Source of the DNA: an uncultured Candidatus Saccharibacteria bacterium
GTDB taxonomy: Bacteria; Patescibacteriota; Minisyncoccia; Phycocordibacterales; G965230995
NCBI GenBank assembly: GCA_965230995.1
Contig: OZ246398.1
Span: 211,768-275,767, forward strand
DNA length: 64,000 bases
Direction of reading: 5' to 3'
Positions within the stretch are counted from its first letter, which is position 1. Every line of letters begins with the position of its first letter. A program made the translations under genes and the position numbers. Below, one piece after another: positions 940 to 60,600 of this stretch. The notes beneath the pieces were generated by a model. It was not told the origin of the DNA. It was given only the letters and a program-made list of their open reading frames with translations, and searched no databases.

Positions 940-3165
940 ATGAGTAATTTGCTAAAACAAATTAATTTTTGGAAATTTTGTCTGCTAGCGTTTAGTTTTT
1001 TTGTATTTTGTTTTGGTTTTTTTCTTGTGCCGACCATTACAAAAGCAGGACAAATTACCTTACCTCCAAACAACCTAGGTCTAGTAGGGTATTGGTCATT
1101 TGAAGATGCTACGGGCACTGTTGCAACTGATTTTTCTGGTAATGGTAATGTTGGAGCACTAACAAATGGACCGTTATGGTCAGCTGGTAAAGCTGGCAAG
1201 GCAATAGATCTAGATGGTACCGATGATTACGTGTCCTTAGGCAGTAATCTCTTAAATGGAGAAGCTGCTATAACAGTAGCAGCTTGGGTTAATATGAATG
1301 CCTTACCTGGACATGAGGGCACGTATTATATCCTGGCAGCAGATGATGGCAGTAGTAGTGGAAGTGAGTCGGTATTTTCAATGGGGGTGGCAACTTATAC
1401 ATCTATAAATTACATTTCTCAAAACTTTCTCGGGGTGAATGCCTTTTTTGGTGTCAGAACAACATCGGGACCAAACGGTGAAAGACCGATTGCTATATCA
1501 GACGCATCTTATGGCGGGGAGTATCTAAATGGTATGGCAATAGTTAATGATCCAGCTGGATTAGAGGCAAATAAATGGGTCCATATAATTGGGACATATG
1601 ATGGTTCAGAGACTAAAATTTATTTTAACGGTGTTCTTGCAGGTTCAAGCACAAATCAACCAGACGGGCAGAATAGGTCTATTACTGGTAATCTAAAATC
1701 TACTAATCAGGAAAGAAGAATCGGTGCGGGAAGTGGAGGTGGATATTATACAGACGGTACTGCAGACGAAGTCCGCATTTACAACCGAGCTCTTTCTGCA
1801 ACTGAAGTCTCTACTCTCTACAATCGCTCAAGCAAAATCCGCACAATACAATCATCACAAAGGAACCTAGTTCCTAATGGTCTAGTAGGCTACTGGTCTT
1901 TTGATGGTTCTGATATATCAGGAACATCAGCATATGACAGATCAGGTAACAACAACACTGGTACATTAACTAATGGCCCAACAGTTGCGATTGGAAAGAT
2001 GGGGCAAGCGATGAATTTTGATGGAAGTGATGATTATGTAGATTGCGGTTCTGGTGCTTCCTTAAATTTAAACACCTCTTTTACATACACAGCCTGGATT
2101 AAACCACAGAACGTTACGGGAGATAAAATGATCATTTCTAAAGGAACAACCGGACAATGGTATGTATATTTTTCTTTAAATGGTAATAAATTATACGTAG
2201 CAACTTATGATGATTCCACTGTTGCAACCCTTGATGGGTTAACAGTTCTTTCAGCGAGTGGATGGTCTCATGTGGTCGTTTCTTATGATGGTTCAAGTTT
2301 AAAACTTTATGTTAATGGTGTGCTGGACAACTCAACATCTTCGTTAATTAACCCATCGACTGGCGGAACTCAATTTACATATATTGGACGTCCAACATAT
2401 ACCAGTGGTTCATATTTTAATGGTTTGATTGACGACACCCGTATCTACAACCGCGCCCTCACCACATCAGAAATCAATCAGCTTTACAAAGCAGGTGAAG
2501 CCAAACTACAAGCCACACAAAACTCCAAATTAACAAACGGTCTTGTAGGTCTCTGGTCATTTGATGGTCCAGACATTTCTGGTACTACAGCGTATGACAG
2601 AAGCGGAAATGCCAACAATGGAACACTTACCAACGGCCCAACAGTTGCAATTGGAAAGATGGGTCAGGCAGTCAACCTCGACGGAAGCAATGACTATATA
2701 AACACATCAGCAACAGGACTAGATTTTAGCACCGGTGATTTCTCTATCAGCTTTTGGAATAAAACTAACGGATCAATAACAAGTATTGCTGAAGCATTAA
2801 GTACCCCAGACGAATCAATTCGTGTGTCATACAACAATGCATGCGTTTCAGATCAGCCTAAGGGGTTGGCAGTTGTGGCTGGTGGACAAATTGGATGTAC
2901 CTCAAACGCTATTGGAACATACACAGATGGAAATTGGCACCTTGGTACAATAGTCAGAACCTCTGGAACAGTTACCTTTTATCACGACGGGGTAAGCATT
3001 CTCTCATTTGCTTCATCTGGTAATGTAAATGCAAACAGCTTTCAACTGGGTAAATATGCTGGGGCAGCACTCAATCATTTTAATGGTTCTCTTGATGATA
3101 CTCGTATTTACAACCGCGCGCTTTCCACAGGTGAAATTCAGATGCTGTATAATATGGGGAGATAA
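940..3165 (+). CDS. Large secreted or membrane-anchored protein with about three LamG-like (concanavalin-like lectin) jellyroll repeats
   Basis: N-terminal hydrophobic segment. Repeated LVGYWSFDG..SGT.AYD.SGN.N.GTLTNGP blocks, each ending in a D(D/E)(T/V)RIYNRAL motif typical of LamG repeats. Paralog of 52843..55014 and 55017..57575. Confidence 0.75.
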   Translation: MSNLLKQINFWKFCLLAFSFFVFCFGFFLVPTITKAGQITLPPNNLGLVGYWSFEDATGTVATDFSGNGNVGALTNGPLWSAGKAGKAIDLDGTDDYVSLGSNLLNGEAAITVAAWVNMNALPGHEGTYYILAADDGSSSGSESVFSMGVATYTSINYISQNFLGVNAFFGVRTTSGPNGERPIAISDASYGGEYLNGMAIVNDPAGLEANKWVHIIGTYDGSETKIYFNGVLAGSSTNQPDGQNRSITGNLKSTNQERRIGAGSGGGYYTDGTADEVRIYNRALSATEVSTLYNRSSKIRTIQSSQRNLVPNGLVGYWSFDGSDISGTSAYDRSGNNNTGTLTNGPTVAIGKMGQAMNFDGSDDYVDCGSGASLNLNTSFTYTAWIKPQNVTGDKMIISKGTTGQWYVYFSLNGNKLYVATYDDSTVATLDGLTVLSASGWSHVVVSYDGSSLKLYVNGVLDNSTSSLINPSTGGTQFTYIGRPTYTSGSYFNGLIDDTRIYNRALTTSEINQLYKAGEAKLQATQNSKLTNGLVGLWSFDGPDISGTTAYDRSGNANNGTLTNGPTVAIGKMGQAVNLDGSNDYINTSATGLDFSTGDFSISFWNKTNGSITSIAEALSTPDESIRVSYNNACVSDQPKGLAVVAGGQIGCTSNAIGTYTDGNWHLGTIVRTSGTVTFYHDGVSILSFASSGNVNANSFQLGKYAGAALNHFNGSLDDTRIYNRALSTGEIQMLYNMGR

Positions 3166-10840: not shown

Positions 10841-10841
10841 C

Positions 10842-10872
10842 AAAATTAAAAGCCGAAAGGCTTTTTAATTTT
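10842..10872 (+). terminator. Long hairpin (about 13-bp stem, GAAA loop) plus T-run directly 3' of tRNA-Lys
   Basis: aaaattaaaagcc-gaaa-ggctttttaatttt. Confidence 0.4.
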
Positions 10873-11009
10873 GTGCGCCCAAGCAAGTCCGGGGGACTTG
10901 CGTGTAGGAATCGAAGCCCGATTGAGTATAATTACGAGTCCGTTTAGGACGAAGTAATTATCCAATCGGGGTACTGACCCTGTAAGGGTCGATTCCTCCT
11001 CTGCGCACA
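10873..11009 (+). repeat. A-type tRNA-linked structured element. Its 5' arm is the complement of the tRNA-Lys 3' end, followed by a conserved nested-stem core, then a near-copy of the tRNA-Lys 3' end.
   Basis: 5' part GTGCGCCCA-(hairpin)-GTGTAGGAATCGAA is the reverse complement of the tRNA 3' end. Core GAAGCCCGATTGAG..ATAATTACGAGTCCGTTTAGGACGAAGTAATTATCCAATCGGGGTACTGA is shared with 26868..27042 and partly with 30112..30271. 3' end GGGTCGATTCCTCCTCTGCGCACA resembles the tRNA-Lys 3' end. Confidence 0.5.
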
Positions 11010-11066
11010 TCGCAACAATAGAAAAACACCTCTGATTTTCAAGGTGTTTTTCTTTTGCGATGTGCG

Positions 11067-11231
11067 AGCCGGACTGAAGCGGAGCGGAGGGAGGCGGGGT
11101 CGCGACTTCGTCTTGAGTTCACGAAAGACGAAAGTTGTGACCACAAAATTAATAACAAAAGGTACACTGTCCATGTAATGGAAGATTCCTACTGCTGAAC
11201 TTTTTTAAGTGACCCCGTAAGGCTCGATTCC
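11067..11231 (+). repeat. B-type G-rich module plus two further degenerate tRNA-Lys T-arm/3' copies
   Basis: GCCGGACTGAAGCGGAGCGGAGGGAGGCGGGGTCGCGA motif shared with 27090..27316 and 25391..25514. Partial tRNA 3' copies GATTCCTACTG (about 11184) and GGCTCGATTCC (about 11221). Confidence 0.4.
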
Positions 11232-12636: not shown

Positions 12637-13538
12637 TATCCGTAAGAATAGGTATCGACCACTTTTCCATTTTTGTCGAACATATCTAATGTGTCTTTGC
12701 TGATTCTCCAGAGCGGTTGTGAACTTCTGAGGAAAATCCTCCATTCATTTTTGTAAAAATCGTCGTCATTTTTGTGTTTAGAAACACAAGTAGGGTAGTT
12801 TACTTTTTGATTTATATATTCAGTACATTGACTGCTAAAATTTGGAATTGATTCAATTTGTACTTCGCATCTATTCATATCGTCGATAAAATCAAAACAC
12901 TTTTCATTATCGAGAGAATATGGAATACCCTCGACATCGTCGATAGGGTAAGGGCAGTATTCTGTAATGTAGGGTTTAAAATCATAGAATTGATTGTGAT
13001 AACCGCTGCAAATGTTTGCTCGGAAAGATTCCCCAATCGGAGATGTTCCTGTGTTTATATAAATATATTGGCTTTTTGAAACTTCTATATTAGATATGTA
13101 TGAATTATTGTTAGGTAAATATAGGTTTGAGCCTTTTGGTATCGTAATAGTATTTCCCGTCAAACGGCTTTTGATAGTCCAGCCCGTAATGTCTATTGGA
13201 GTGTCTATGTCGTAGGATGATCTGAGGGTTAAATATTCGTTATCTATATTTCTGTTTGATGGCGTGTAAACACCAGCGATTGTAACCATTTCAAAATATG
13301 GTGATCTCGTTTCTTTTTCTTTTGTTTCTCTGATTTCTTCTTCGAGCTCGGTGACTCTTTCTTTTGTTTCTTTTATCTTTTGTTCAATTTCTGTCTTTGT
13401 AAGAGGTTCGGTTTTTTCCGTTGTTTGTTTTGATTTGTTTGAATTTTGCTCGCCAGTTAGGGGAAAGTCAGTTCCAAAGAAAACTCCTATCATAAGGACA
13501 ATCATAAGAACTATAAAAAACCCTGTGTTGTCTTTCAT
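12633..13538 (-). CDS. Hypothetical membrane-anchored protein (N-terminal TM, coiled coil, Cys-rich beta-rich domain, possibly lamin-tail-like)
   Basis: TM segment FFIVLMIVLMIGVFF, a charged coiled-coil stretch, and an ITGWTIKS-type motif. Confidence 0.45.
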   Translation of the reverse strand: MKDNTGFFIVLMIVLMIGVFFGTDFPLTGEQNSNKSKQTTEKTEPLTKTEIEQKIKETKERVTELEEEIRETKEKETRSPYFEMVTIAGVYTPSNRNIDNEYLTLRSSYDIDTPIDITGWTIKSRLTGNTITIPKGSNLYLPNNNSYISNIEVSKSQYIYINTGTSPIGESFRANICSGYHNQFYDFKPYITEYCPYPIDDVEGIPYSLDNEKCFDFIDDMNRCEVQIESIPNFSSQCTEYINQKVNYPTCVSKHKNDDDFYKNEWRIFLRSSQPLWRISKDTLDMFDKNGKVVDTYSYGY

Positions 13539-14443
13539 TATCTTTGATGTTTATCACAATAATGAGCACTGCGTCCGCCCAAAACCGTTCTTTGTATTAT
13601 ACCCCCACATCCATTTTTTGGACACTTTTCTCCGCGTCTACCATACGCTTTGTGAAAGTTTTGGAAACCACCTTTTTCTCCAAAGGCATTTCTATAATCA
13701 GAAAGAGAATCACCTCCCATACCAATAGAACGAACTAATATTTTTCTTGTATGTTTAAAAATATTTTTCCATTCAGTATCTGTAACGTCTATTGTTTTTC
13801 GAAAAGGGGATACGCCGGCTTCAAAAAGTATTTCATCTGAATATATGTTTCCGATGCCCGACACAAGTGTCTGGTCGAGTAATGCTTGTTTCATCGGGAG
13901 ATTGGCTCTCTTTTGTATAAAGTCTCGCATTTCTTTCCATGTGTTTATGTCTGAAAGAGGGTCGGGACCGAGCTTGGCCAAATCTTTGTGGTCTTTGTGA
14001 TTGCCGATAAATAAAGTCACTGTTGCAAATTTTCTAGCATCAGAAAGCACGAGAGTCTTTCCTGATTTTAATATAAAAGCAGTGTGAACAAATCTATTAT
14101 ATGGATCGGCAAGGGGGCTGTTCTTGTCTTTTGGTGTCCAGCGATTTTCTTTTTTATGAAATATATAATCACCAACCATAAGATGGCCGGTCATTTTCAT
14201 GTGAACAATAATGTGAGTTTTCTTTTCCAGATGAATGACAATATATTTTGCCATTCTAGAAACACTGGTGATTTTTTTACCTCTGATTTCTTTTTTGAAG
14301 TGTGCAAAAAATTCCGGATCCTTTATATGTTCCTTGTTTTTGTAAAATGGGGAATTGAGGTCAGTCCAAACGTCAGTAATGGTTTCACCTATGAGAGTCC
14401 TCAAACCCCTTACGGTTGTTTCTACTTCTGGTAATTCTGGCAT
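13538..14443 (-). CDS. fpg: Formamidopyrimidine-DNA glycosylase (Fpg/MutM/Nei family)
   Basis: N-terminal MPELPEVET with catalytic Pro2 and Glu3. C-terminal zinc finger C..C....C..C. Confidence 0.85.
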   Translation of the reverse strand: MPELPEVETTVRGLRTLIGETITDVWTDLNSPFYKNKEHIKDPEFFAHFKKEIRGKKITSVSRMAKYIVIHLEKKTHIIVHMKMTGHLMVGDYIFHKKENRWTPKDKNSPLADPYNRFVHTAFILKSGKTLVLSDARKFATVTLFIGNHKDHKDLAKLGPDPLSDINTWKEMRDFIQKRANLPMKQALLDQTLVSGIGNIYSDEILFEAGVSPFRKTIDVTDTEWKNIFKHTRKILVRSIGMGGDSLSDYRNAFGEKGGFQNFHKAYGRRGEKCPKNGCGGIIQRTVLGGRSAHYCDKHQR

Positions 14444-14595
14444 ATTTTGATGCTAGCAAAAAAGGCCAGATAAAGCCATTGTGATTTTGTTTAGTATAAA
14501 TAGTTGACATAGCCTAGATAAAGGCGTATAATATATAGAGATAGTCAAAAGCACCTTTAAATAAGGATTTGCGAAAAATCTCAAACACAGATCAA

Positions 14596-14653
14596 GTAGC
14601 CACAGCTTTTTGTGTCTAATGTCCAAAATATGGACACAAAAAGCTGTGGCTAC
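14596..14653. promoter_or_regulatory. Perfect 21-bp inverted repeat with a 16-nt spacer, in the divergent region between fpg and a GC-rich ORF
   Basis: GTAGCCACAGCTTTTTGTGTC ... GACACAAAAAGCTGTGGCTAC. The spacer holds a second small palindrome, TGTCCA..TGGACA. Confidence 0.4.
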
Positions 14654-14715
14654 CATGTCGGTAGGCCAAGCGTAACATGCTATCCACAAGATAGCGCAAC
14701 ATAGGGGTAACCCTT

Positions 14716-15339
14716 ATGAGCACCGCAACGTTGGCGCAGGGAAAGCATCTGCTGGAACTCGCAGCACAGAATGGCTTGTCTTTCGAGGGGCACAACAGTC
14801 TCACTCAGAAAGGTCTTTTGGCCGATTTGTTCGAGGCTGCAGGTAATGGGAATCTCAACACTGTCAACCGGGATGAGTTTCGGAAGATCCTTGGTCTCGC
14901 GCCCCTCGCTATGGAAATGGTTTTGGACTACAGCCAGACGCTCGAGCAGATGATCGCCACCTGGCATTTTGACGGGTGGAATCGCGCCGTCACAATCGAG
15001 CGGTTTCCGATGCTCGGGACGGGCAAGGTTACACTTAAGCCCGAGCTCATACACTTCGACCACTGTATGTCCATCGAAGATGCGGGGGATACTATGGTAA
15101 AGCGCAAGCTCCGTCCTCCAACCCTCGCGGAACTTCTTGCTTTCGGGGCGAAGTATCCCGAACTGCAACGTAAGTTTCCGATCGTCGCGCTCGGTCAGTG
15201 TGCCAGGATCGGTGACTCTCTGTGCTTTCCGTTCCTCGACGGTACCGACGGTAGGCGCTGGCTCGATCTGGGTTGTTGCGAGGAAGGCTGTCAAAAATAC
15301 TGCCGTTTCCTCGGCGTTCGCAGTCTGAGTTCATTCTGA
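14716..15339 (+). CDS. Hypothetical protein encoded in a GC-rich (apparently foreign) island
   Basis: 207-aa ORF with balanced composition. The overlapping minus-strand ORF 14680..15294 is Arg-rich and is judged the spurious partner. GGGG-type ribosome-binding site upstream. Confidence 0.35.
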   Translation: MSTATLAQGKHLLELAAQNGLSFEGHNSLTQKGLLADLFEAAGNGNLNTVNRDEFRKILGLAPLAMEMVLDYSQTLEQMIATWHFDGWNRAVTIERFPMLGTGKVTLKPELIHFDHCMSIEDAGDTMVKRKLRPPTLAELLAFGAKYPELQRKFPIVALGQCARIGDSLCFPFLDGTDGRRWLDLGCCEEGCQKYCRFLGVRSLSSF

Positions 15340-15544
15340 TCTGGAAGCGAGAATCAGTCCTTCGCATACAACTAACCAAACGCTTGGGAGAATAGCGTTA
15401 AACTCCACCTCGTGCAATTTGTCCCTCGGACACTTTGACCCTTCAGTACACCTTGCTCGGCAAGCTCTGTACCGAAGGGTCGATTTTTTATATAAAAAGA
15501 CTGAGTATAATTTTGTAATTAGTAATGCAATTAGTGTTCTTGGG

Positions 15545-16831
15545 TTATTTCAAAACCTTCTCCAATTCTTCTCTCACCACGGTTGCATCATCCCAAGGTT
15601 CTTTGCTTCCGTTTGGACCCATAATATATGGGTCGGTGCCTTTTCCAGTAATAATCACAACATCGTTTTCTTTTGCATATTTTAGAGCTGTATTTATTGC
15701 TTCTCTTCGGTCCAAGATTATTTCATAAGGAGTTATCTCTATTCCTTTTGCCATTTGTTCCAATATTTCTTTTGGATCCTCGTCGTAAGGGTCTTCGTTG
15801 GTTAGAATTATTTTTGAACAAAAAGTGTCGGCAATTTTTCCCATTTCTGGTCTTTTCCAAACATCTCGCCCTCCACCCGTGTTACCTAAAATACATATTT
15901 TATTATCGTGTTCGTATGCACCGTAAATTGCTTCGAGAGAGCTCGGAGTGTGGGCATAGTCTACAATCACGGTAAACTTTTGTTTTTTTTCGAGAGGATT
16001 ATTTGATTCCAGTGTTATTTTCTCTCCTCGTCCTCTGATTAGATTTAAACCCGATACTCCTTTTCTAATATTTTCGAGAGACACACCGAAAGCCTGCGCC
16101 ATTTTTGCACAAGCTAAAATATTTAGGATATTAAATTTTCCAGGAAGTTTTGTTTGAATCAATGTCTTTTCTAAAAAGAAAGCAGAGCCGTCATTTTGTA
16201 ATTTTATGTCTGTGGCGTCAGAAATAGAGAAGGGGATTTTTGTTTTGATATTCAAAGCCAAAAAGTCTTTCCCGTGTTTGTCGTCTTCGTTTGCAACGAG
16301 AACCTTTTTTTGTTTGCTTGATCTGGCTAGGCTTTTTGCGATTGATAATTTTGCATTTAAATAATTTTCAAAACCTCCGTGAGATTCTATGTGTTCAGGT
16401 GATATATTGAGAAAAATCAAACCATTTAGGAAAGTAAAAAAATGTCGGAATTGTCTTGCTCCTTCGGATGTTATTTCTAATATTGCAATATCACATTTTG
16501 CATTAACAGAATCACGCAAAAACTTTTGTACAAAAAATCTTCCTGGTAGTGTCATTTTGTACATATTGCGAACACTTTTTTCTCCGATTTTTATACGAAG
16601 AGTTCCGGCGAGGGAAGTCTTTAAACCTTGCGCCTCGAACATTGCGTTTAATATTTCAGCAGAGCTGGTTTTTCCTTTTGTGCCTGTTATACCGATTACG
16701 GTGATATGTTTTCCGGGAAATCTGTAAACTATTGCCCCGATTAAAGCAAGTAGAAAATGATAGATCGGTCTTATGGAATCAACTATATTTTTTGGAACAA
16801 GTTTTTTTATGTTTCGAAGTATTCCTTCCAT
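15545..16831 (-). CDS. Mur ligase family protein (MurE/MurF-like, or MurT-like lacking the N-terminal domain)
   Basis: P-loop GITGTKGKTS, DYAHTP motif, C-terminal Mur ligase domain. Confidence 0.6.
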   Translation of the reverse strand: MEGILRNIKKLVPKNIVDSIRPIYHFLLALIGAIVYRFPGKHITVIGITGTKGKTSSAEILNAMFEAQGLKTSLAGTLRIKIGEKSVRNMYKMTLPGRFFVQKFLRDSVNAKCDIAILEITSEGARQFRHFFTFLNGLIFLNISPEHIESHGGFENYLNAKLSIAKSLARSSKQKKVLVANEDDKHGKDFLALNIKTKIPFSISDATDIKLQNDGSAFFLEKTLIQTKLPGKFNILNILACAKMAQAFGVSLENIRKGVSGLNLIRGRGEKITLESNNPLEKKQKFTVIVDYAHTPSSLEAIYGAYEHDNKICILGNTGGGRDVWKRPEMGKIADTFCSKIILTNEDPYDEDPKEILEQMAKGIEITPYEIILDRREAINTALKYAKENDVVIITGKGTDPYIMGPNGSKEPWDDATVVREELEKVLK

Positions 16832-26867: not shown

Positions 26868-27042
26868 CCTAGAAAGCTCCTGGGGAGCTTTCGTCCAGGA
26901 CTCGAAGCCCGATTGAGCGACATTGTTTGATTTATCAGACAAGAAGTACTCTTGTGGTGCATAATTACGAGTCCGTTTAGGACGAAGTAATTATCTAATC
27001 GGGGTACTGAACATGTAATGTTCGAGTCCTGTATCGCCCACA
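26868..27042 (+). repeat. A-type tRNA-linked element (tRNA-Val copy)
   Basis: Hairpin GAAAGCTCC-TGG-GGAGCTTTC. CAGGACTCGAA is the complement of the tRNA-Val T-loop and T-stem. The conserved core is identical to the tRNA-Lys copy over ATAATTACGAGTCCGTTTAGGACGAAGTAATTATC. The last 22 nt, TTCGAGTCCTGTATCGCCCACA, are identical to the tRNA-Val 3' end. Confidence 0.5.
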
Positions 27043-30359: not shown

Positions 30360-30432
30360 GGTGCCTATAGTGTAATGGTTAGCACAAGAGTTTGTGGAAC
30401 TCTTAGTTCGGGTTCAAATCCCGATAGGCACC
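30360..30432 (+). tRNA. tRNA-His (anticodon GUG) with a genomically encoded G-1
   Basis: G-1 followed by acceptor GUGCCUA/UAGGCAC, D-arm GUGU-AAUGGUUA-GCAC, anticodon loop UUGUGGA, discriminator C. Confidence 0.85.
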
Positions 30433-31763
30433 CAAGATGAAATGGAACTGTATAAAACATATATAGTTAAAAGAAAGAATTACCCTTTGTATTCCTTATA
30501 ATATTTTAATGTGCTGGATTAAATGATATTATTTGTTATATGGAAAATCTAAATCAAACACAAAGTCATGTTGGTACTACTAGATTAATAAGTAGGACAC
30601 AACTGATAAGTACTATTACTTTTTTTTCAATTTCTGTTTTGTTAGGAATAATAGTTTATATAAAAGAACCTCGTGCTCTCGATTTGCTCGGATTTTATGC
30701 TTTCGGTCTTTTTATCCACGCTGTTGCCTTTTTTCTTTCGGTTTATCTAAGGCCAAAAATCAATTCAACAAGATATTTATTGGGCCATGTTTTTGCATAT
30801 TTATCGCTGTTGTTTGCGATTCTGAATGCGTTGATTATTTTAAGTGATGATGAGTATGCCGGTTTTGCATTCATTTTGACATTGCCCGCACTTGGCATTG
30901 CTGTATTCATATCAATCATGTTTTTATTAATTGGTATGATTGGTAGAAAAACAAATAGTGACCAATTCGTTTCGACCAGCGGTGATCTAGATAATCCTAA
31001 TCAGACAGGAATTAAGACAAAAATAGGCATTATAATTAAAAAAATTTTTATCTCAATTGGTGCTATTGTAATTGCAATATTAATTTCTATCCCTTCAGCC
31101 GTTTTTGTCGGCATGCTTTTGGATGGCAGATCAGTGCGTGAGGCTTTAAATATTAGCTTAGGCGTCTATGGTTTTAACGTAAAATTTCCATTTATATGGA
31201 CAGATCGTATGATTGAGCATGATAACGTTAAAATTGAATTTAAAACTCCCGGTGGTAGTAGGGACTATTATTCTCCGAGCGGTGGTAATTATGATAAGTA
31301 CGGTTGGTATAAGATATACATATATAGCGATGGATTTGGCGGAGATGATTTTAATTTTGATCTAAATATTGGCGATGATGATAGGTACATAAAAACTTGC
31401 AAAATATGTTATGAGGGTTATGTATCAGGGGATAAGGTAATATACACCAAAACAAAAGATAGTTATTCTGATGATGATTACTCTTATTATAATAAATACA
31501 ATTTTCTTTTAAGTTTTAGATATAACGAAAAAAACTATCATCTTTCTTTTAGATATTCTGATATTAATTCTAGATACAAAGAAACTTTTTACTCAGAAGA
31601 AGAAATGACAGATATATTTGAAAGAGTTATGGATTCTATAAAAATTAGTTCATAGGCCAGATTATATTTTGTCGGCTAAAAATGTATTTGTTTGAGGTTT
31701 AATTTCGGACACCGAGTTTGTGGAACTCTTAGTTCGGGTTCAAATCCCGATAGGCACCCAAAA
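30389..31763 (+). mobile_element. Integrated island of about 1.3 kb in the tRNA-His 3' end, bounded by 48-bp direct repeats of the tRNA-His 3' two-thirds. Single cargo ORF, no integrase.
   Basis: GAGTTTGTGGAACTCTTAGTTCGGGTTCAAATCCCGATAGGCACCCAA occurs at about 30389..30436 (within the tRNA) and again at about 31715..31763. Confidence 0.45.
30540..31655 (+). CDS. Hypothetical multi-pass membrane protein with a Tyr/Asn/Asp-rich C-terminal region
   Basis: Four to six TM helices, then YSDDDYSYYNKYNFLLSFRYNEKNYHLSFRYSD-type low-complexity repeats. It is the cargo of the tRNA-His island. Confidence 0.5.
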   Translation: MENLNQTQSHVGTTRLISRTQLISTITFFSISVLLGIIVYIKEPRALDLLGFYAFGLFIHAVAFFLSVYLRPKINSTRYLLGHVFAYLSLLFAILNALIILSDDEYAGFAFILTLPALGIAVFISIMFLLIGMIGRKTNSDQFVSTSGDLDNPNQTGIKTKIGIIIKKIFISIGAIVIAILISIPSAVFVGMLLDGRSVREALNISLGVYGFNVKFPFIWTDRMIEHDNVKIEFKTPGGSRDYYSPSGGNYDKYGWYKIYIYSDGFGGDDFNFDLNIGDDDRYIKTCKICYEGYVSGDKVIYTKTKDSYSDDDYSYYNKYNFLLSFRYNEKNYHLSFRYSDINSRYKETFYSEEEMTDIFERVMDSIKISS

Positions 31764-32118: not shown

Positions 32119-34248
32119 ATGGGTCTTCCACGCGAACGGCATGTGGATGGGCTGAGAGCGGTCGCCGTAATAGACGTCATTCTCGCTCATCTGAAGCTCC
32201 TTCTCGGAGCTTTCATCGGTGTCGATGTGTTTTTTGTCATCTCAGGGTATGTCATCACCAAAATTGGGAGACATACCATTGGGAAGAAAGACGAGCACGG
32301 CAGGGATATGTTTACAATTCCTGGTTTCTACAACCGGCGTGTAAAGAGAATCCTTCCTGCTGCGTTGGTGTGTCTAGCTGTAACCGTAATCGCTGGGTAC
32401 TTCTTCATCGGGCCAAGCGATTACAAAGAGACAGGAGAAGGAGCACTTGCGGCTACCTTGATGGCTGGAAACATCCATGAGGGACAGCTACCGATTGGGT
32501 ACTTTGACCACGACTTTCAGGCGAGACCAGTCAACCACTTTTGGAGTCTGGGTGGGGAAGAACAGTTTTACCTGATCTTTCCAATGGCCCTTATGCTCCT
32601 CTTGAGGTTTTGTCCAAAGAAAGCACCTGTGGTCCTTGTACTGATTGGACTGGGTCTTCTGTGCTGGAGCGGGTACTCGGTACTTGCATTCAAGGTGTGG
32701 AGGTTCTATTGCCCTGCAAACAGGGCATGGGAACTGATTGCTGGTGCGTTGCTAGCTTTCCCGCCGATTGGTGTCAAAACCAAGATGGGGGGAAAGATAG
32801 TGATTGTTTTGGTGGGGGTGTCTCTCGTTCTGACTGTCGGCGGAGTCCTGCAGGGTATGTTCCTGTTCGTAATTTCCGCCGTGCTTATGCTCGGGACTGG
32901 TGCTTTAGTCTTGTATCGTCCGGAGAATCCGACACGGTGGCAAGGCGAGGTACTTAGCCTGATTGGTATGGCACTCATCGTGACCGGTTGTGTCGTCTTC
33001 GATCGAGAAACTCTGTTTCCAGGCTTTCTGGCTCTCGTGCCAGTACTGGGAGCAATGCTCGTAATTGTGGGCGCTTCAAACAAGGAGGTACTCCTGAATC
33101 GCCTGCTATTGGCTAAACCAGTATTGTACATCGGGGCAATATCGTTCTCGGTCTACCTCTGGCACTGGCCGATAATCGTCTACACCGACTTCTACTCGCC
33201 GATACCTCTCGGTCTGTGGCACAAGTTGGTGTTGATAGCGGTCACTCTTGCGGTCGCTAGTGTGAGCTACCACTTCATAGAGAAACCGTTCCAGGAAAGC
33301 AAGGCAAAGAAAGAGTCTGTGTTCTTCGCAGGCCTTATTGCTGTGCTAACTGTGTACGCCGTAGCTCTTTTGGTGGTAGACAAGAACGGTTGGCCGGAAA
33401 GATTCGGGAAGCTGGCAACGCCAGTTGTGCTGAATACTTCCGGTATCGAAATCAACGACAGCCTCGGCAAAGACGGGACATGGCTGAAACAAAAAGGCCT
33501 GCCTGTCATCGGGGACGTCAAAACAACCCCAACATTCCTTCTTGCTGGAGATTCACACGTCAACGCGTTTGTGGAGATCTTCGACAAGTTGGGAAAGGAG
33601 AAAGAAGTTTCCGGATTTGTGTCGTTTAGGTCGGGCAGTTTACCGGTTCCCGGTATATGGACCACCCGAGAGAACGACACGCCGGAAAGCTTTATGGGCT
33701 ACAACCGAGCACTCGAGCAATTCGTGCACGAGAGAAATCTCAAGCATGTATTTCTCGTTGGCAGGTGGAGCAATGCCGTAGTTGGCGATATGCTCGTATC
33801 CGAAGACCCAACGAGGAAAGAGGTAGAAAAAGAGCTGTCTGCAAGGACGCTCGAAAAAAACCTCTTTGCTCTGGTTGCGAGGCTCAAGGCTTCGGGTGTG
33901 GATGTTGTGATCGTACAACAGCTACCAGAACACCCGTTCCACGCCTACAAGAAACTGGTAGCGAGAAGGGGTCGCTTGAAAGGTGTGAGCCGAGAAGCCT
34001 ACCTTTCAAAGCAGGGGACAACGATTGATATGATCCTTCGCTCCGGCGCAAGGACTGTCGATCTATCCTCGCTCCTCTTTGAGGGGGACTGTGTGAGACT
34101 CATTGATCCCAAAGGCTATCCGATATGGTGGGACTATGACCACATCGGTGGTAGAGAGATCACGAGAATTGCTGGTCCTACGTTCGAGACGTTCTTTAAA
34201 GAAATCGCAAACCAAAAAGGAGACTTTGCGATGAACAAAAGGGAGTGA
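32119..34248 (+). CDS. Acyltransferase family 3 membrane protein fused to a C-terminal SGNH hydrolase domain (OatA/OafA-like O-acetyltransferase). GC-rich, apparently horizontally acquired.
   Basis: N-terminal DGLRAVAV...GVDVFFVISGYVIT acyltransferase-3 signature and about 10 TM helices. C-terminal domain of about 250 aa. Many overlapping alternative-frame ORFs are typical of GC-rich DNA. Confidence 0.7.
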   Translation: MGLPRERHVDGLRAVAVIDVILAHLKLLLGAFIGVDVFFVISGYVITKIGRHTIGKKDEHGRDMFTIPGFYNRRVKRILPAALVCLAVTVIAGYFFIGPSDYKETGEGALAATLMAGNIHEGQLPIGYFDHDFQARPVNHFWSLGGEEQFYLIFPMALMLLLRFCPKKAPVVLVLIGLGLLCWSGYSVLAFKVWRFYCPANRAWELIAGALLAFPPIGVKTKMGGKIVIVLVGVSLVLTVGGVLQGMFLFVISAVLMLGTGALVLYRPENPTRWQGEVLSLIGMALIVTGCVVFDRETLFPGFLALVPVLGAMLVIVGASNKEVLLNRLLLAKPVLYIGAISFSVYLWHWPIIVYTDFYSPIPLGLWHKLVLIAVTLAVASVSYHFIEKPFQESKAKKESVFFAGLIAVLTVYAVALLVVDKNGWPERFGKLATPVVLNTSGIEINDSLGKDGTWLKQKGLPVIGDVKTTPTFLLAGDSHVNAFVEIFDKLGKEKEVSGFVSFRSGSLPVPGIWTTRENDTPESFMGYNRALEQFVHERNLKHVFLVGRWSNAVVGDMLVSEDPTRKEVEKELSARTLEKNLFALVARLKASGVDVVIVQQLPEHPFHAYKKLVARRGRLKGVSREAYLSKQGTTIDMILRSGARTVDLSSLLFEGDCVRLIDPKGYPIWWDYDHIGGREITRIAGPTFETFFKEIANQKGDFAMNKRE

Positions 34249-34312: not shown

Positions 34313-34341
34313 ATTGACATACCCCCGTAGGGTATATATAA
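34313..34341 (+). promoter_or_regulatory. Sigma70-type promoter (TTGACA-17-TATAAT) with a CsoR-type operator palindrome ATACCCCCGTAGGGTAT in the spacer
   Basis: Read directly from the sequence. Same layout repeated before copA and the following gene. Confidence 0.55.
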
Positions 34342-34348
34342 TTAGGGG

Positions 34349-34621
34349 ATGAAAAAACAAGCTGATGAAAAAGCAAAGATTGTTCGCAGACTTTCTATAA
34401 TAGAAGGGCAGGTGAGAGGTCTCAAAGAAATGATTGAAAACGGCACATATTGTATTGATGTTATTACTCAAACATCAGCAGTAAAGCAAGCACTGTCAAA
34501 TGTTGAAGATATGCTTCTGGAACAACATCTCGGTTCTTGTGTCTTGGGACAGGTAAAAGACGGCAAAGTAGGCAAGGCGACAGAAGAAATCCTCAAGGTC
34601 TATAAATTAAAGAGAAAGTAG
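34349..34621 (+). CDS. csoR: CsoR/RcnR-family copper-sensing transcriptional repressor
   Basis: 90-aa all-helical protein. C..H..C metal-ligand spacing (YCIDV...H...C) of the DUF156 family. Confidence 0.75.
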   Translation: MKKQADEKAKIVRRLSIIEGQVRGLKEMIENGTYCIDVITQTSAVKQALSNVEDMLLEQHLGSCVLGQVKDGKVGKATEEILKVYKLKRK

Positions 34622-34632
34622 TTTTTTGTTTC

Positions 34633-34665
34633 TTGACCTATACCCCCTAGGGGGTATAGAATGGG
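34633..34665 (+). promoter_or_regulatory. Promoter TTGACC-17-TAGAAT with a perfect CsoR-type palindrome TATACCCCCTAGGGGGTATA in the spacer
   Basis: Read directly from the sequence. Confidence 0.5.
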
Positions 34666-34668
34666 GAT

Positions 34669-36987
34669 ATGGAAAAAACAAAAGCAAAAAACATTTATCC
34701 AATTGTCGGTATGCATTGCGCCTCTTGCGCCGGCATTATCGAAGAAACTTTAAAAGAGGAAAAAGGGGTGAGCGGTGTTTCGGTAAACTTTGGCACTGAA
34801 AAAGCTGTTATTGTTTTTGATGAAAAACAAACAAATATAAAAACTCTTTCAAAGAGTATAGAAAAATTAGGCTATACAATTACTGACACAAAAGAAAATC
34901 TTTCTGCATCGGAAATGGGAATGAGTGAAGAACTCCATAGGGAACACAGCGGTATCGGACAATCAAAAGAACAAAAACTCGAAGAACTTTCTTCTATGAA
35001 AAAGATGCTTTTTTCTGCTATACCAATTGCAATATTTAGTGTCATTGTAATGGTTTGGGAAATATCATCAGAGTATGGTTTCTTACCAAAAATGAATGAA
35101 GTAACAGATGAATTTGTTCATCACCTTTTGCCTATGTTTGCTACATACATGCTTCTTGTGGTTGGTAAACCTTATCTTTTGGGGTTGTTTAGATTCATAA
35201 AATACGGCAAGGCAAATATGGATACTTTGATTGGGCTCGGCACTAGCGTTGCTTTTATTTACAGCTTTGCGATTTCGGCCTTTGGTACTTTGCTTGCGCC
35301 ATATATCAATGTTGAATATCAATACTACGACGTCACCGTCGTTGTTATTGCTTTTATTACTCTTGGAAAATATTTGGAAGCAAGATCAAAAATCAAAACA
35401 GGTGACGCAATAGAAAAATTATTAGGTCTACAAGTAAAAACTGCAATTGTCATTCGCGATGGAAAAGAAACAGAATTACCAGTCAGTGAAGTCGTGCATG
35501 GTGACAGTGTAATCATCAAACCAGGAGGAAAGATTCCCGTTGACGGAATCGTGCTTTCCGGGAATTCTTTTGTGGATGAATCAATGATTACGGGCGAACC
35601 AATGCCAGTCTCAAAAAAGCAAGGCGACAATGTGACTGCCGGAACTCTAAACACAAACGGCACTTTCACTTTTAAAGCAACGAAAATAGGGGAAGAAACA
35701 TTGCTTGCGGAAATAATCAGAATGGTAGAGGAAGCACAAGGAAGCAAAGCTCCAATTCAAGCCTTGGCCGACAAAATATCAAGTATTTTTGTGCCAATAG
35801 TTTTGGCAATCGCTGTTGTTGCTCTGGGTTCGTGGCTAATTATCGGTTCACAATATCTGGGTTTTTCACAAGCGCTTTCTTTTGGGCTAGTTTCTTTTGT
35901 CGGTGTTTTGGTTATTGCTTGTCCTTGTGCACTAGGACTTGCAACACCCACAGCAATTATTGTCGGTGTAGGCAAGGGCGCTCGCGAAGGAATTTTAATC
36001 AAGGACGCTGGGACTTTGGAGACTTTGCACAAAGTTAATACTGTAGTGGTTGATAAAACAGGGACAATAACTGAAGGTAAACCAACATTGTCTGATGTTA
36101 AAAATTATTCCGAAAAAAGCGATGAGGAATTTATCTCTCTGCTTGCATCTCTTGAAAATAATTCAGAACACCCCATTGCTCGCGCGATAACCTCTACTGT
36201 AAACGAGAGGAAGGGAATTGCTTTGAGTGAGGTCGCAGATTTCAAAGCAATTGAAGGTAAGGGAATACAGGGTTTTATAAAAAATGAAATGTATTATGCC
36301 GGTAGTCCAAAATTTATTTTAGAGCTCGGGTTATCTATTAATGAACAAGAAATAAACATATTTACAAAGCAAGGCAAAACGCCAGCGTTGCTTGCAACAA
36401 AAAACAAAGTATTAGGACTTGTGACGGTTTCCGATAAAATAAAAGACGCTTCAAAGCAAGCTGTCTCTGATTTGCACAAACTCGGTATAAAAGTCGTGAT
36501 GCTCACCGGTGACAATGAAAAAACCGCGCGATACATAGCAGAGCAAGTCGGTATAGATAATGTAATTGCAAATGTTATGCCGACAGAAAAACTTTTTCAT
36601 ATAGAAAAATTACAATCAGATGGCAGTGTTGTGGCTATGGCAGGGGATGGAGTAAACGACGCACCAGCACTAGCAAAAGCAGATGTCGGTATCGCAATGG
36701 GAACGGGGACAGATGTTGCAATAGAATCAGCAGGTATTACTTTACTTGCTGGTGATATTTCAAAATTAGTTAAAGCCGTGAGACTCTCAAAGATGACAAT
36801 GCGAGGAATAAAACAAAATTTATTCTGGGCTTTTGCGTATAACGTAATAGGAATACCTCTTGCAACAGGAATCTTTTATCCGATATTTGGCTGGGTGCTC
36901 AGCCCTGTATTCGCAGGTTTTGCAATGGCACTTTCAAGTGTGTCAGTAGTCGGCAATTCGTTAAGAATAAAAGGGAAGAGATTATAA
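34669..36987 (+). CDS. copA: Copper-translocating P-type ATPase
   Basis: N-terminal [15 protein letters not shown] ion-channel motif, DKTGTIT phosphorylation site, GDGVNDAP. Confidence 0.9.
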
Positions 36988-36989
36988 TT

Positions 36990-37018
36990 TTGACTTGATA
37001 CCCCACGGGGGTATAGAA
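36990..37018 (+). promoter_or_regulatory. Promoter TTGACT-17-TAGAAT with CsoR-type palindrome ATACCCCACGGGGGTAT in the spacer
   Basis: Read directly from the sequence. Confidence 0.5.
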
Positions 37019-37019
37019 T

Positions 37020-38075
37020 ATGAATATGACACAAAAAGTAGAGAATAGTGGTAACCAAACAAAAAAATATCTTTTTCACGTAGAAGGAATGCATTGTAAA
37101 TCTTGCGTCCTTCTCACAGAATCAAAAGTTGGTAGTCAAAGTGGTGTAAGGGAAGTGCGCGCCAATCTCCACAAGCAAACAATAGAAATAATGGGTGATT
37201 TTGGAGAAAAGACAGATTTAGAAATTGCTAATTATCTTTCACAAAGCATAGAGCCAAACGGCTACAAAATTGTTCTAGAAAAAACAGAGGGACAAAAAAA
37301 GAACAATGAATTTATTATTGCAGTACCAATTGCGGTTGCTTTTATTGGACTATTTATCGCTCTTCAGAAAATGGGGATTGTTAATCTTGTGGATGCAAGT
37401 TCAGTTTCTTTTGGTACTGCTTTTGTAATAGGAATTGTTGCTTCACTTTCTACTTGCATGGCTGTCGTTGGCGGTCTTGTTTTGTCTATGTCGGCAGTGT
37501 TTGCAAAGGAGGGAAGTAAGGCCCGCCCACATATTTATTTTCATCTATCTAGGCTGGTCACTTTCTTTTTGCTTGGTGGCGTGATCGGTCTTGTTGGTAA
37601 ATCATTTGCCCTTAATACGGTTTCTACTTTTGTCCTTGGTTTGGCTGTGGGATTGGTTATACTTGTTATGGGTCTCAACTTGCTCGACCTTAAATTTGCA
37701 AAAAGATTTTCCGTCAGTATGCCAAAGAGATTAGGAAAGATTACACACGGTATGACAACCATAAACCATTCTGCTGTGCTAATGATTGCTGGACTTGCGA
37801 CTTTCTTTTTGCCTTGCGGGTTTACACAGTCAATGCAAATCTATACTCTTTCTGTTGGTGGTTTTATCCCCGGCGCTTTGACTATGTTTGCTTTTGCTCT
37901 TGGTACATTGCCAGTTTTGGCTCTGATAAGTTTTGGATCATTTGAGGTGAGAAAATTATCTTGGCGAGGAATATTTTTCAAGACTGCTGGCATAATAGTT
38001 ATCGCTTTCGCATTGTTCAATATTATAAACAGTGCTGTTGTAATCGGCATCATCCCGCCAATATTTAATTTTTAA
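37020..38075 (+). CDS. HMA-domain membrane protein, putative metal transporter or thiol-disulfide transporter-like (DsbD/CcdA-like TM core)
   Basis: N-terminal HMA GMHCKSC. About six TM helices with conserved Cys (STCMAV, FLPCGF). Confidence 0.4.
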   Translation: MNMTQKVENSGNQTKKYLFHVEGMHCKSCVLLTESKVGSQSGVREVRANLHKQTIEIMGDFGEKTDLEIANYLSQSIEPNGYKIVLEKTEGQKKNNEFIIAVPIAVAFIGLFIALQKMGIVNLVDASSVSFGTAFVIGIVASLSTCMAVVGGLVLSMSAVFAKEGSKARPHIYFHLSRLVTFFLLGGVIGLVGKSFALNTVSTFVLGLAVGLVILVMGLNLLDLKFAKRFSVSMPKRLGKITHGMTTINHSAVLMIAGLATFFLPCGFTQSMQIYTLSVGGFIPGALTMFAFALGTLPVLALISFGSFEVRKLSWRGIFFKTAGIIVIAFALFNIINSAVVIGIIPPIFNF

Positions 38076-55014: not shown

Positions 55015-55016
55015 AA

Positions 55017-59825: not shown

Positions 59826-59860
59826 CGTGCCCACCGCCACGGGGCGGTAGGCACGTATTG
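59826..59860 (-). terminator. GC-rich hairpin and U-run on the minus strand just downstream of the GC-rich HIT gene
   Basis: acgtgcc-caccgccacggggcggt-aggcacgt. Confidence 0.4.
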
Positions 59861-59879
59861 CAATCAGACCGCCTGGGCA

Positions 59880-60497
59880 TCACTCATTCATGTGATACGC
59901 CCGGACGAGTTCCTCTTCGGTATTTGCATTGAAAAGGAGGTGATCCCTTTCGGTCTGAAGCCCCCGTTCTGCGTAGACGCGCGCGTAAACCTCCATCCGG
60001 GCAATCTGCGCCTCGCGTACCTCTTCGGGCTTCCCGAAGACCTGCAGGACACTTCCTTTGCCTGTCGGCCGGATGAGGTGTGCGTGCGGATGCTTCAGGG
60101 TTGCCCCCGAGAGATCCGGCCTGTCACCGAACCGGAGAGCCAGACCTCCCCCTCGGATGTTGTACATCCCGCAGAGAGTGTTGAAGAAGGAAAAGAGCTC
60201 CGCGCCTTCTTCGGGCTTGAAAACAAAACCAGCGACATCCTTCGGGTGCCTCTTGAGGACTAGCACGAAGGGTTGATGTTGGGAGGGGTTTTCCTTGTAG
60301 ATTGCGTTCTCAATCACAGTCCAGAACATCCCCACGAGGACTGCTCTGTTCGGTTCCTTGATTTTGCAAAACGGGCAAACATCTTGTTCGATAGCCCGCC
60401 TCATGATTTCGTAGTAGTGGTAGCCCCAGCAGTTTTCGAGCCAACAAATCCAGTTTTTCACCGCATTTTCTCCGTTGAGGGTTTCGCCAAAGATCAC
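59880..60497 (-). CDS. HIT-superfamily protein (GalT-like / Ap4A-phosphorylase-like) on a GC-rich, apparently foreign segment
   Basis: CPFC zinc knuckle and histidine-triad LKHPHAHLI. Homologous to the AT-rich native paralog 62036..62476 (CPFC ... LSGAT.SHLHLHII). Confidence 0.5.
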   Translation of the reverse strand: MIFGETLNGENAVKNWICWLENCWGYHYYEIMRRAIEQDVCPFCKIKEPNRAVLVGMFWTVIENAIYKENPSQHQPFVLVLKRHPKDVAGFVFKPEEGAELFSFFNTLCGMYNIRGGGLALRFGDRPDLSGATLKHPHAHLIRPTGKGSVLQVFGKPEEVREAQIARMEVYARVYAERGLQTERDHLLFNANTEEELVRAYHMNE

Positions 60498-60600
60498 ATC
60501 TCAAATAATATTATATTATAAGTATAAGCTTTTGTAAAGAATGATGAAAGCTTAAGAAAAAAGATATATAATAGGGTTATACAAATAATATAAAAATAAA

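Follow-up and report, generated by a model that had tools for sequence, protein, structure and literature searches.

A GC-rich gene island between fpg and murE

The DNA analysed here, referred to as the window, is a stretch of 64,000 nucleotides (nt; 64 kb) from contig OZ246398.1 (positions 211,768 to 275,767) of an uncultured Candidatus Saccharibacteria bacterium. The window has a GC content of about 35% and resembles a genome of the Patescibacteria (candidate phyla radiation, CPR). The gap between fpg and a MurE-type ligase gene (murE) is filled by a GC-rich island (about 14504-15489) that carries a perfect 21-base-pair (bp) palindrome and a gene for a protein of 207 amino acids (aa). GC rises along the window from about 0.35 to 0.53-0.57 within about 14600-15450. 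The 207-aa gene has 55% GC, compared with 36-37% in its surroundings, and a GC content at third codon positions (GC3) of 0.64, compared with 0.29-0.31 in fpg and murE. The first-pass annotation of this DNA had reported the island, its inverted repeat, its 207-aa open reading frame (ORF) and a nested hairpin at its 3' end (about 15440-15500), and all four were found where it had placed them. The features of the locus are as follows.

13538-14443, minus strand: fpg
14504-14532, plus strand: predicted sigma-70-type promoter, TTGACA-17 nt-TATAAT, matching 12 of 12 consensus positions
14552-14577, plus strand: conserved 5' leader block CACCTTTAAATAAGGATTTGCGAAAA, corresponding to GTTCTTTGA and TTGCGAA in the family
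14596-14653, plus strand: hairpin P1, perfect 21-bp stem with a 16-nt loop (from an inverted-repeat search and covariance model R1)
14679-14695, plus strand: P2, small hairpin GCTATC-CACAA-GATAGC in the predicted minimum-energy fold
14700-14718, plus strand: P3, hairpin CAUAGGGG-UAA-CCCUUAUG in the predicted minimum-energy fold, pairing the Shine-Dalgarno (SD) sequence and AUG
14716-15339, plus strand: 207-aa gene, encoding an N-terminal helical domain (about residues 1-60) and a C-type-lectin-fold domain
15193-15321, plus strand: segment equivalent to the variable repeat (VR) of relatives, residues 160-202 (from alignments A1 and A2 with the hypervariable C-terminus of the family)
15437-15489, plus strand: intrinsic (rho-independent) terminator, with a 14-bp outer stem, a nested inner stem and T6
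15545-16831, minus strand: MurE-type ligase gene

By prediction, the island is one transcription unit composed of promoter, leader, 207-aa ORF and intrinsic terminator. Transcription is predicted to start near 14539-14541, giving a leader of about 175 nt, and near-consensus promoters are found at an equivalent distance 5' of most of the homologous genes. The palindrome begins about 55 nt into this leader, not at the end of a gene, and has no terminating role, transcription of fpg running in the direction away from it. The 3' hairpin lies 98 nt past the stop codon and is followed by GATTTTTT, which ends at 15489. Its outer arms (15437-15450 and 15468-15481) are 93% complementary, with GA and then TTTTTT (15484-15489) after them; a simple terminator scanner missed it because of the nested loop.

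A family of lectin-fold proteins linked to diversity-generating retroelements

The first-pass label of the 207-aa protein, hypothetical, can be replaced. A homology search found 172 homologs of about 200 aa (E<0.01), whose named sources are all metagenome-assembled genomes of Patescibacteria/Paceibacterota, and the AlphaFold2 model (predicted local distance difference test score, pLDDT, 91.5) shows the fold of a C-type lectin (CLec). Scans of the protein against Pfam, PHROGs and NCBIfam gave zero matches, a sequence-profile search of the PDB gave only noise, with no solved structure matched by sequence, and no relatives were found among viral contigs. An antisense ORF of 204 aa, likewise with zero matches in the Pfam, PHROGs and NCBIfam scans, was treated as a by-product of the high GC. 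The possibility that the whole island is a structured non-coding RNA was ruled out, as it has no Rfam match and contains an ORF with 172 homologs and a confidently predicted fold. Protein alignments of the family show a conserved core followed by a hypervariable C-terminus ending in CRFLAVRK. Scaffold Trp residues that are nearly invariant across the family are replaced by Cys in the VR-equivalent segment of the 207-aa protein (A1, A2).

The gene is identified as being of the diversity-generating retroelement (DGR) type because of the genomic contexts of its relatives. Eighty metagenomic loci of the family, denoted by L numbers, were sampled, and DGR linkage was judged on the 35 unique genes that are followed by 2 kb of sequence or more. 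At L004 and L005, the C-terminal coding region of a homolog is repeated downstream of the gene over 141 nt, with bAvd and RVT_1 genes beyond the repeat. The template repeat (TR) of L004 lies 470 nt downstream of its 141-nt VR, the latter being homologous to 15193-15321 of the window, and in the compared stretch of 110 nt all VR/TR mismatches are at TR adenines (18/18), as in a canonical DGR. Mismatches restricted to adenines are also found at L016 (21/21), L034 (17/17) and L056 (17/17). The relatives with adenine-specific VR/TR pairs are 33-47% identical to the 207-aa protein, and have a reverse transcriptase (RT) gene about 900 nt downstream. Among the 35 unique genes, 18 are DGR-linked, with an RT about 900 nt downstream in each case and, in 16 of the 18, also a TR at a distance of 350-400 nt. 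Neither RT nor TR accompanies the remaining 17, among them the gene of the window. Thus, the 207-aa protein is a CLec-fold protein of the DGR variable-protein type, belonging to a Patescibacteria family.

The window's copy has the CLec-fold C-terminal domain and the homology to VR-bearing proteins that are expected of a DGR variable protein, while a TR, RT or Avd of its own is missing within the 64 kb. A tblastn search with the L004 RT returned only noise (E=6.7), and no RVT-like ORF is present near the island. No TR-like copy of 15150-15500 was found in the window by blastn, and a VR-derived pattern allowing A at every position (A kept, C->M, G->R, T->W) had zero TR matches there; as a positive control, the pattern made from the L004 VR recovered its TR. 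There is no second family member in the window. The identical protein was found on four contigs, with two sequencing runs represented, and clustering at 90% identity leaves it as the only member, so VR variants are not observed. The Trp->Cys replacements are non-adenine changes. From the missing TR and RT, the single-member cluster and the Trp->Cys replacement together, the gene is read as stand-alone and probably undiversified, that is, most likely a copy that is currently non-diversifying. This reading has to be weighed against one in which DGR activity on the gene continues in trans, from a distant TR and RT elsewhere in the 743-kb genome, with the leader unrelated to this process. Half of the family loci are DGR-linked, and according to Wu et al. 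2018 (PMC5758913) DGRs can reach non-adjacent or remote targets, with avd-TR-brt working in trans. The VR-equivalent segment has a 3' end (TTCCTCGGCGTTCGCA) close to that of the L004 TR, and across the family the last 50 codons are markedly poor in third-position A. However, neither TR nor RT is found in 64 kb, the invariance of the protein across contigs and the non-adenine route to Cys are not what an active target would suggest, and in CPR, DGRs reportedly tend towards a single adjacent target, remote targets being found only in another lineage (PMC5758913). We therefore regard diversification in trans as unlikely, though as an alternative to be taken seriously.

The high GC of the island is a property of the family. 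Nearly all homologous genes have 52-64% GC in hosts of 33-50%, and in the DGR cassettes (L004, L016, L019, L034, L038, L045, L056, L085 and others) the target is the only GC-rich gene. Mean values for these cassettes are 58% GC and GC3 0.72 for the target, 41% and 0.45 for the adjacent RT, which is at or below host GC, and 47% for the flanks. Third-position A makes up 11% in family genes overall and 3% in their last 50 codons. Horizontal acquisition is a sufficient account of the GC3 in the window genome taken alone; the enrichment limited to the target gene is family-wide.

Two other genes of the window have a GC3 similar to that of the 207-aa gene. A second GC-rich single-gene island (59880-60497, minus strand, with flanks 59830-60580; GC3 0.67) encodes a 205-aa ORF with an HPHAH (HIT-like) motif, together with an AT-rich promoter region of its own and a terminator hairpin that is GC-rich. 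Pfam gave no hit for the 205-aa protein, and no paralogy was found between it and the island protein. The other gene (32119-34248, plus strand) encodes a 709-aa AT3 acyltransferase fused to an SGNH domain, and with about 51% GC and GC3 0.57 is compositionally foreign.

The palindrome as a probable stem of a conserved RNA leader

The arms of P1 (GTAGCCACAGCTTTTTGTGTC, 14596-14616, and GACACAAAAAGCTGTGGCTAC, 14633-14653) are 21 nt long, 100% complementary and separated by 16 nt. A search for other copies of the 21-mer, which the first-pass annotation had proposed, was run on the window and found none, even with 3 mismatches (0/100 shuffles). Upstream of the homologs, a common layout is seen: a near-consensus promoter, 50-130 nt, a long hairpin, 30-90 nt, and the ATG. 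The base of the hairpin has the consensus TCGCCAYAGC...GCTRTGGCGA, to which GTAGCCACAGC...GCTGTGGCTAC corresponds in the window. Within the family, P1 of the window stands out as unusually long and perfectly paired, a form that also occurs at L004, L043, L056, L028 and L083. Across loci, the conserved arms are 16 to 37 nt apart.

Covariance model R1 was built from 18 hairpins, the seeds being chosen for perfect basal complementarity. It finds one match per locus at about 28 loci of this family (family 1) and at three loci of a second family (family 2, below), all of them upstream of the gene and in sense orientation. Scores on the sense strand are usually 15-30 bits above those on the antisense strand (range 10-33), and the single match in the window scores 54.8 bits on the plus strand and 35.8 on the minus strand. 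In an alignment of 27 sequences (A5), 94% of cells are paired and compensatory changes occur in 17 of 21 pairs, with a covariation of 0.587 compared with 0.197 in shuffled alignments (0/500 shuffles reach it) and about 0.12 with the partners slid. Wobble pairs are retained at fixed positions of A5, G.U in 20/27 and U.G in 19/27 sequences. As the seeds of R1 had been picked for perfect basal complementarity, the counts were also made on an independent set (A9) of 12 hairpins found only by the model, in which 93.7% are paired, 15/21 pairs have compensatory changes, and covariation is 0.636 compared with 0.246. In the non-seed hairpins, the departures from Watson-Crick pairing are wobble pairs on the sense strand. 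On the opposite strand, the conserved G.U pairs would read as C.A mismatches.

The varying spacing, the covariation and the sense-strand wobbles argue for a structure formed by the single-stranded sense sequence, most simply an mRNA leader, and not for a duplex operator. P1 would thus be one stem of a conserved and previously uncatalogued RNA leader that acts as RNA. In the manner of a conserved cis-acting RNA, it combines fixed position and orientation with compensatory pairing and selection on the sense strand; it falls in no described family. Against Rfam 15 (4227 families), only the tRNAs of the window reach the gathering threshold, while the hairpin gives sub-threshold miRNA-like noise and 11 related loci give nothing. 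In the literature searched, RNA motifs are described beside the RT genes of DGRs (RT-10 and others, PMC5737381), and none upstream of the target genes. In viral contigs, the P1 consensus pattern matches only four GC-rich chance palindromes, with equal scores on both strands.

Other parts of the leader also recur. Blocks between the promoter and the hairpin are found at L004, L013, L019, L038, L073, L211 and others, P1 being flanked in the family by GTTCTTTGA and TTGCGAA on the 5' side and, in one subtype, by GGTAGYCCTCTAGC on the 3' side. The 5' block might conceivably pair with the SD region. Equivalents of P2 in which the sequence has changed and the pairing is kept are present at L001, L014, L020, L024, L033, L037, L052 and L011, although these are few sequences. 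P3 is predicted to occlude the translation start, the SD and AUG both being buried in the modelled fold, and the same CAU...SD...AUG pairing design recurs with different sequences at other loci, in both leader subtypes. The window leader is predicted to fold much more stably than its shuffles (z = -6.8).

Presence and absence of the island in relatives

Comparison of the locus in relatives, which had also been suggested at first pass, was carried out by locating syntenic loci via MurE homologs, with the gene order S20, RuvA, MurE, fpg, a 300-aa gene and SpoU. In three relatives, whose MurE is 66-67% identical, the order S20-RuvA-MurE-fpg-SpoU is retained, and the MurE-fpg spacer measures 75-312 nt, without such a gene: the spacer of L209 (6290-6366) is 75 nt and empty, that of L210 (6290-6603) is 312 nt with an unrelated Cys-rich ORF of 60 aa, and that of a JGI contig is about 300 nt. 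In the closest relative (72% MurE identity; L211, L212), a cassette of about 50% GC (L211 2036-3090) lies at the same site and is oriented alike. By eye and by model R1, the promoter and leader of this cassette are homologous to those of the window, and include a P1 (GTAGCCATAGCCACAA...TTGTGGCTATGGCTAC, 39 bits), but its protein cannot be aligned with the 207-aa protein beyond about 34 N-terminal residues. Since relatives have nothing or something else at this place, the spacer is variable and the island an accessory insertion, one that is compositionally foreign, as its GC content supports. No flanking direct repeats or target-site duplications were found around the island; the relatives are too diverged for the insertion junctions to be defined.

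The L211 protein belongs to a second Patescibacteria family, of at least 1009 proteins of about 210 aa, with no Pfam domain, a modelled CLec/FGE (formylglycine-generating enzyme) fold and a hypervariable C-terminus ending in GFAFAVSQ. P1 is also found upstream of genes of this family (L211 2169-2855, minus strand; L213 3501-4190; L214 3501-4136). No RT was found in the four second-family loci examined, and viral contigs contain one distant relative of the family, without P1. The leader is therefore common to at least two lectin-fold gene families, and is better conserved than the coding sequence that follows it.

Alternative explanations of the palindrome and of the 3' end

The first-pass annotation had argued that the palindrome is more than a terminator needs, and had proposed an operator, a recombination site or a hairpin-forming origin. 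That it is functional and not due to chance is borne out; the three proposed roles are not, as the palindrome lies within the predicted transcribed leader and recurs, in sense orientation only, upstream of about 30 homologous genes. A DNA operator, with a dimeric repressor bound to both arms blocking transcription from the promoter upstream, would agree with the sequence conservation of the basal arms (TCGCCAYAGC / GCTRTGGCGA) across loci and with the position of the palindrome less than 100 nt from a strong promoter, and symmetric change of both half-sites can mimic covariation. We nevertheless hold it to be improbable, as the conserved half-sites are about 30 to 47 nt apart among loci, which is unfit for a fixed dimer geometry, the complementarity runs on through a variable upper stem that a protein would not need, G.U and U.G occur at fixed columns with the wobbles on the sense strand only and the antisense scores 10-33 bits lower, and no regulator gene is conserved beside the cassette. 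Strand-specific G.T pairs would also fit folded single-stranded DNA (ssDNA), and with it a site for recombination or mobility, in which a hairpin of attC-like, IS200/IS605-like or Xer-like type would serve to move the cassette. The cassette is an insertion missing in several relatives, the cargo of the fpg-MurE spacer differs by lineage, the GC rise starts exactly at the hairpin, and the closest relative combines the same leader with another gene, as though the coding part were swapped. Yet there is only a single hairpin per cassette, on the promoter side and within the transcript, the promoter and 5' block upstream of it belong to the conserved unit, more than half of the family loci lack P1 and still lie at varied genomic sites, and flanking direct repeats were not found. 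Genes for an integrase, transposase or Rep protein (integron integrase, tyrosine or serine recombinase, TnpA) do not accompany the cassette in the window or at almost all related loci, the exception being a transposase gene adjoining the second-family gene of L214. A mobility site thus appears very improbable. An integron cassette with an attC site was considered separately and rejected: the hairpin is 5' of the ORF with its own promoter upstream, the cassette is single, and there is no integrase in the window region or at related loci.

The 3' end of the island had been likened to the ends of tRNA-linked elements in the window, and the island could then be an integrated element of that type ending in a T-loop-like remnant. 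The likeness stands to the extent that an 11-mer (AAGGGTCGATT) is present in two exact copies in the window, at the island 3' end and at 10984-10994 in the element after tRNA-Lys. However, the match is of 11 nt only and statistically marginal (with 1 mismatch, 4 copies compared with 1.07 expected, as many being found in 3/100 shuffles), and the island's copy is the descending arm of the 14-bp terminator stem that precedes T6. No tRNA, tRNA fragment or tRNA-like structure is predicted at 14400-15600, so the island has no boundary tRNA, and it has no flanking direct repeat. The homologous genes of L001 and L004 have terminators at the same place that are unrelated in sequence. A tRNA-linked remnant is therefore hardly credible, and the 3' hairpin is an ordinary intrinsic terminator.

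Elsewhere in the window, a 70-nt repeat (10928-10997 and 26961-27030, 91% identical) lies downstream of tRNA-Lys and tRNA-Val and has a T-arm-like end (GGGTCGATTCC). The region after tRNA-Lys (10841-11230) is dense in hairpins and tRNA-like fragments.

Interpretation

The island is best explained as a self-contained unit, probably a stand-alone DGR-type lectin-fold gene with a conserved RNA leader and a terminator, inserted between fpg and murE. The consensus promoter would drive an mRNA of about 950 nt, ended by the 3' hairpin and its T-run, and the product has a short helical N-terminal domain and a ligand-binding domain of C-type-lectin fold. In about half of the relatives, the C-terminal 45 residues are rewritten by the adjacent DGR (TR and RT). 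The leader (5' block, P1, P2 and P3) may limit or gate translation and mRNA life. A trans-acting factor might dock on P1 or process it, for instance an RNA-binding protein or a double-strand-specific RNase, or P1 might simply be a stabilising 5' helix; a candidate role is the binding of a regulator that relieves the occlusion of SD and AUG.

Several points weigh against this explanation. The search for TR and RT covered the 64-kb window of a genome whose contig measures 742,714 bp, and a distant DGR could act in trans. P1 is present at 28/67 family loci with enough upstream sequence and missing from 39/67, and only a remnant of one arm appears to be left at L033; since it shows no correlation with DGR linkage or with the type of N-terminal domain, it would be dispensable for the gene. 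The window's P1 is moreover atypical in being fully Watson-Crick, without the consensus G.U pairs and internal loop. As ssDNA also tolerates G.T pairs, the strand asymmetry taken by itself is compatible with a role as top-strand ssDNA. Finally, promoter firing, RNA folding and the binding or cleavage of P1 are deduced from sequence and prediction.

A wider reading is that the leader represents an undescribed class of RNA, responsive to a trans factor or ligand, that gates CLec variable proteins across the Patescibacteria in at least two families, which taken together have more than 1000 members. This seems to us a rather doubtful extension of the data, roughly a one-in-several chance. Were it correct, the target-specific GC (GC3 0.72 compared with 0.45 in the RT) would be a selected or mechanistic property, and not a trace of horizontal transfer.

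DGR variable proteins are abundant in the ultra-small Patescibacteria and are without recognisable domains. In the family described here, such genes also occur stand-alone, with no retroelement nearby, at about half of the loci examined. They travel compactly, promoter, leader, gene and terminator as one unit, and land in variable spacers between housekeeping genes, and many bear a conserved structured leader, probably an RNA, that is listed in no RNA database. If regulatory, the leader would give a first handle on the timing of production of these proteins. Being compact, it could also serve as a motif by which metagenomes are searched for such genes. For annotation, what was a palindrome in a GC-rich island is now resolved into gene, promoter, leader and terminator.

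Other features of the window

Several features outside the island may be of separate interest. A perfect direct repeat of 48 nt (30388-30435 and 31714-31761), which is the 3' half of tRNA-His, flanks a 371-aa ORF (30540-31655), and looks like an element integrated into a tRNA gene with duplication of the att site. Three related promoter-like sites (34313-34358, 34633-34678 and 36990-37035) have a palindrome (e.g. CTATACCCCCTAGGGGGTATAG) between TTGAC and TAgAAT boxes and lie just upstream of genes starting at 34669 and 37020; these may be operator-containing promoters. At both ends of the window (940-3165 and 52843-57575), there are large paralogous genes (741, 723 and 852 aa) made of modules of about 220 aa with 60-86% DNA identity, which look like repetitive surface proteins.

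Comparison with known systems

Targets of DGRs with a CLec fold include Mtd of Bordetella phage, TvpA of Treponema and AvpA of Nanoarchaeota (PMC8144416, PMC5006420), and a CPR-restricted clade of DGRs, clade 2, has targets without recognisable domains (Roux et al. 2021, PMC8144416; Handa et al. 2016, PMC5006420). The window protein resembles the former in its CLec C-terminus, the last 45 or so residues of which align with the hypervariable VR of relatives, and the latter in being a small Patescibacteria protein with no signal peptide or known domain. It differs from known targets in lacking TR, RT and Avd in 64 kb, in showing no VR variants and in having Cys in place of the scaffold Trp. Its family is moreover in none of Pfam, NCBIfam and PHROGs, and matches no solved structure by sequence.

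Hairpins are known from DGRs themselves. A GC-rich inverted repeat (cruciform) downstream of the VR promotes retrohoming (Wu et al. 2018, PMC5758913). Of the RNA motifs associated with RTs, RT-1 to RT-19, one, RT-10, is located between TR and brt (Weinberg et al. 2017, PMC5737381). P1 is like these in forming a hairpin and in its physical association with DGR components. However, they lie 3' of the VR or beside the RT, whereas P1 is 5' of the target ORF, in the leader; P1 is also found equally in DGR-linked and RT-less loci and matches none of the RT motifs in Rfam.

Hairpins processed by RNase III are found in mRNA leaders such as those of phage T7 (R1.1), lambda N and rnc/pnp, and the length that the enzyme requires is about that of a helix of 16-21 bp. 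The consensus of the P1 family is unlike such sites in having an internal loop and shorter perfect runs. The uninterrupted 21-bp helix of the window, and the helices of 16-19 bp in several relatives, are similar to them, and are likewise positioned between promoter and start codon.

Other leaders act by occluding the ribosome-binding site, as in translational attenuators and riboswitch expression platforms, or stabilise the mRNA with a hairpin, as in the ompA and S-layer mRNAs. P1 differs from a pure stabiliser, which would not need its sequence-conserved base and fixed G.U pairs, and the leader has no Rfam match. It has a predicted SD/AUG-occluding hairpin, P3, as expression platforms do. It resembles this group in its overall design: a strong promoter is followed by a long leader that has a stable 5'-proximal helix and a terminal hairpin pairing SD and AUG, and that is conserved with covariation across many hosts.

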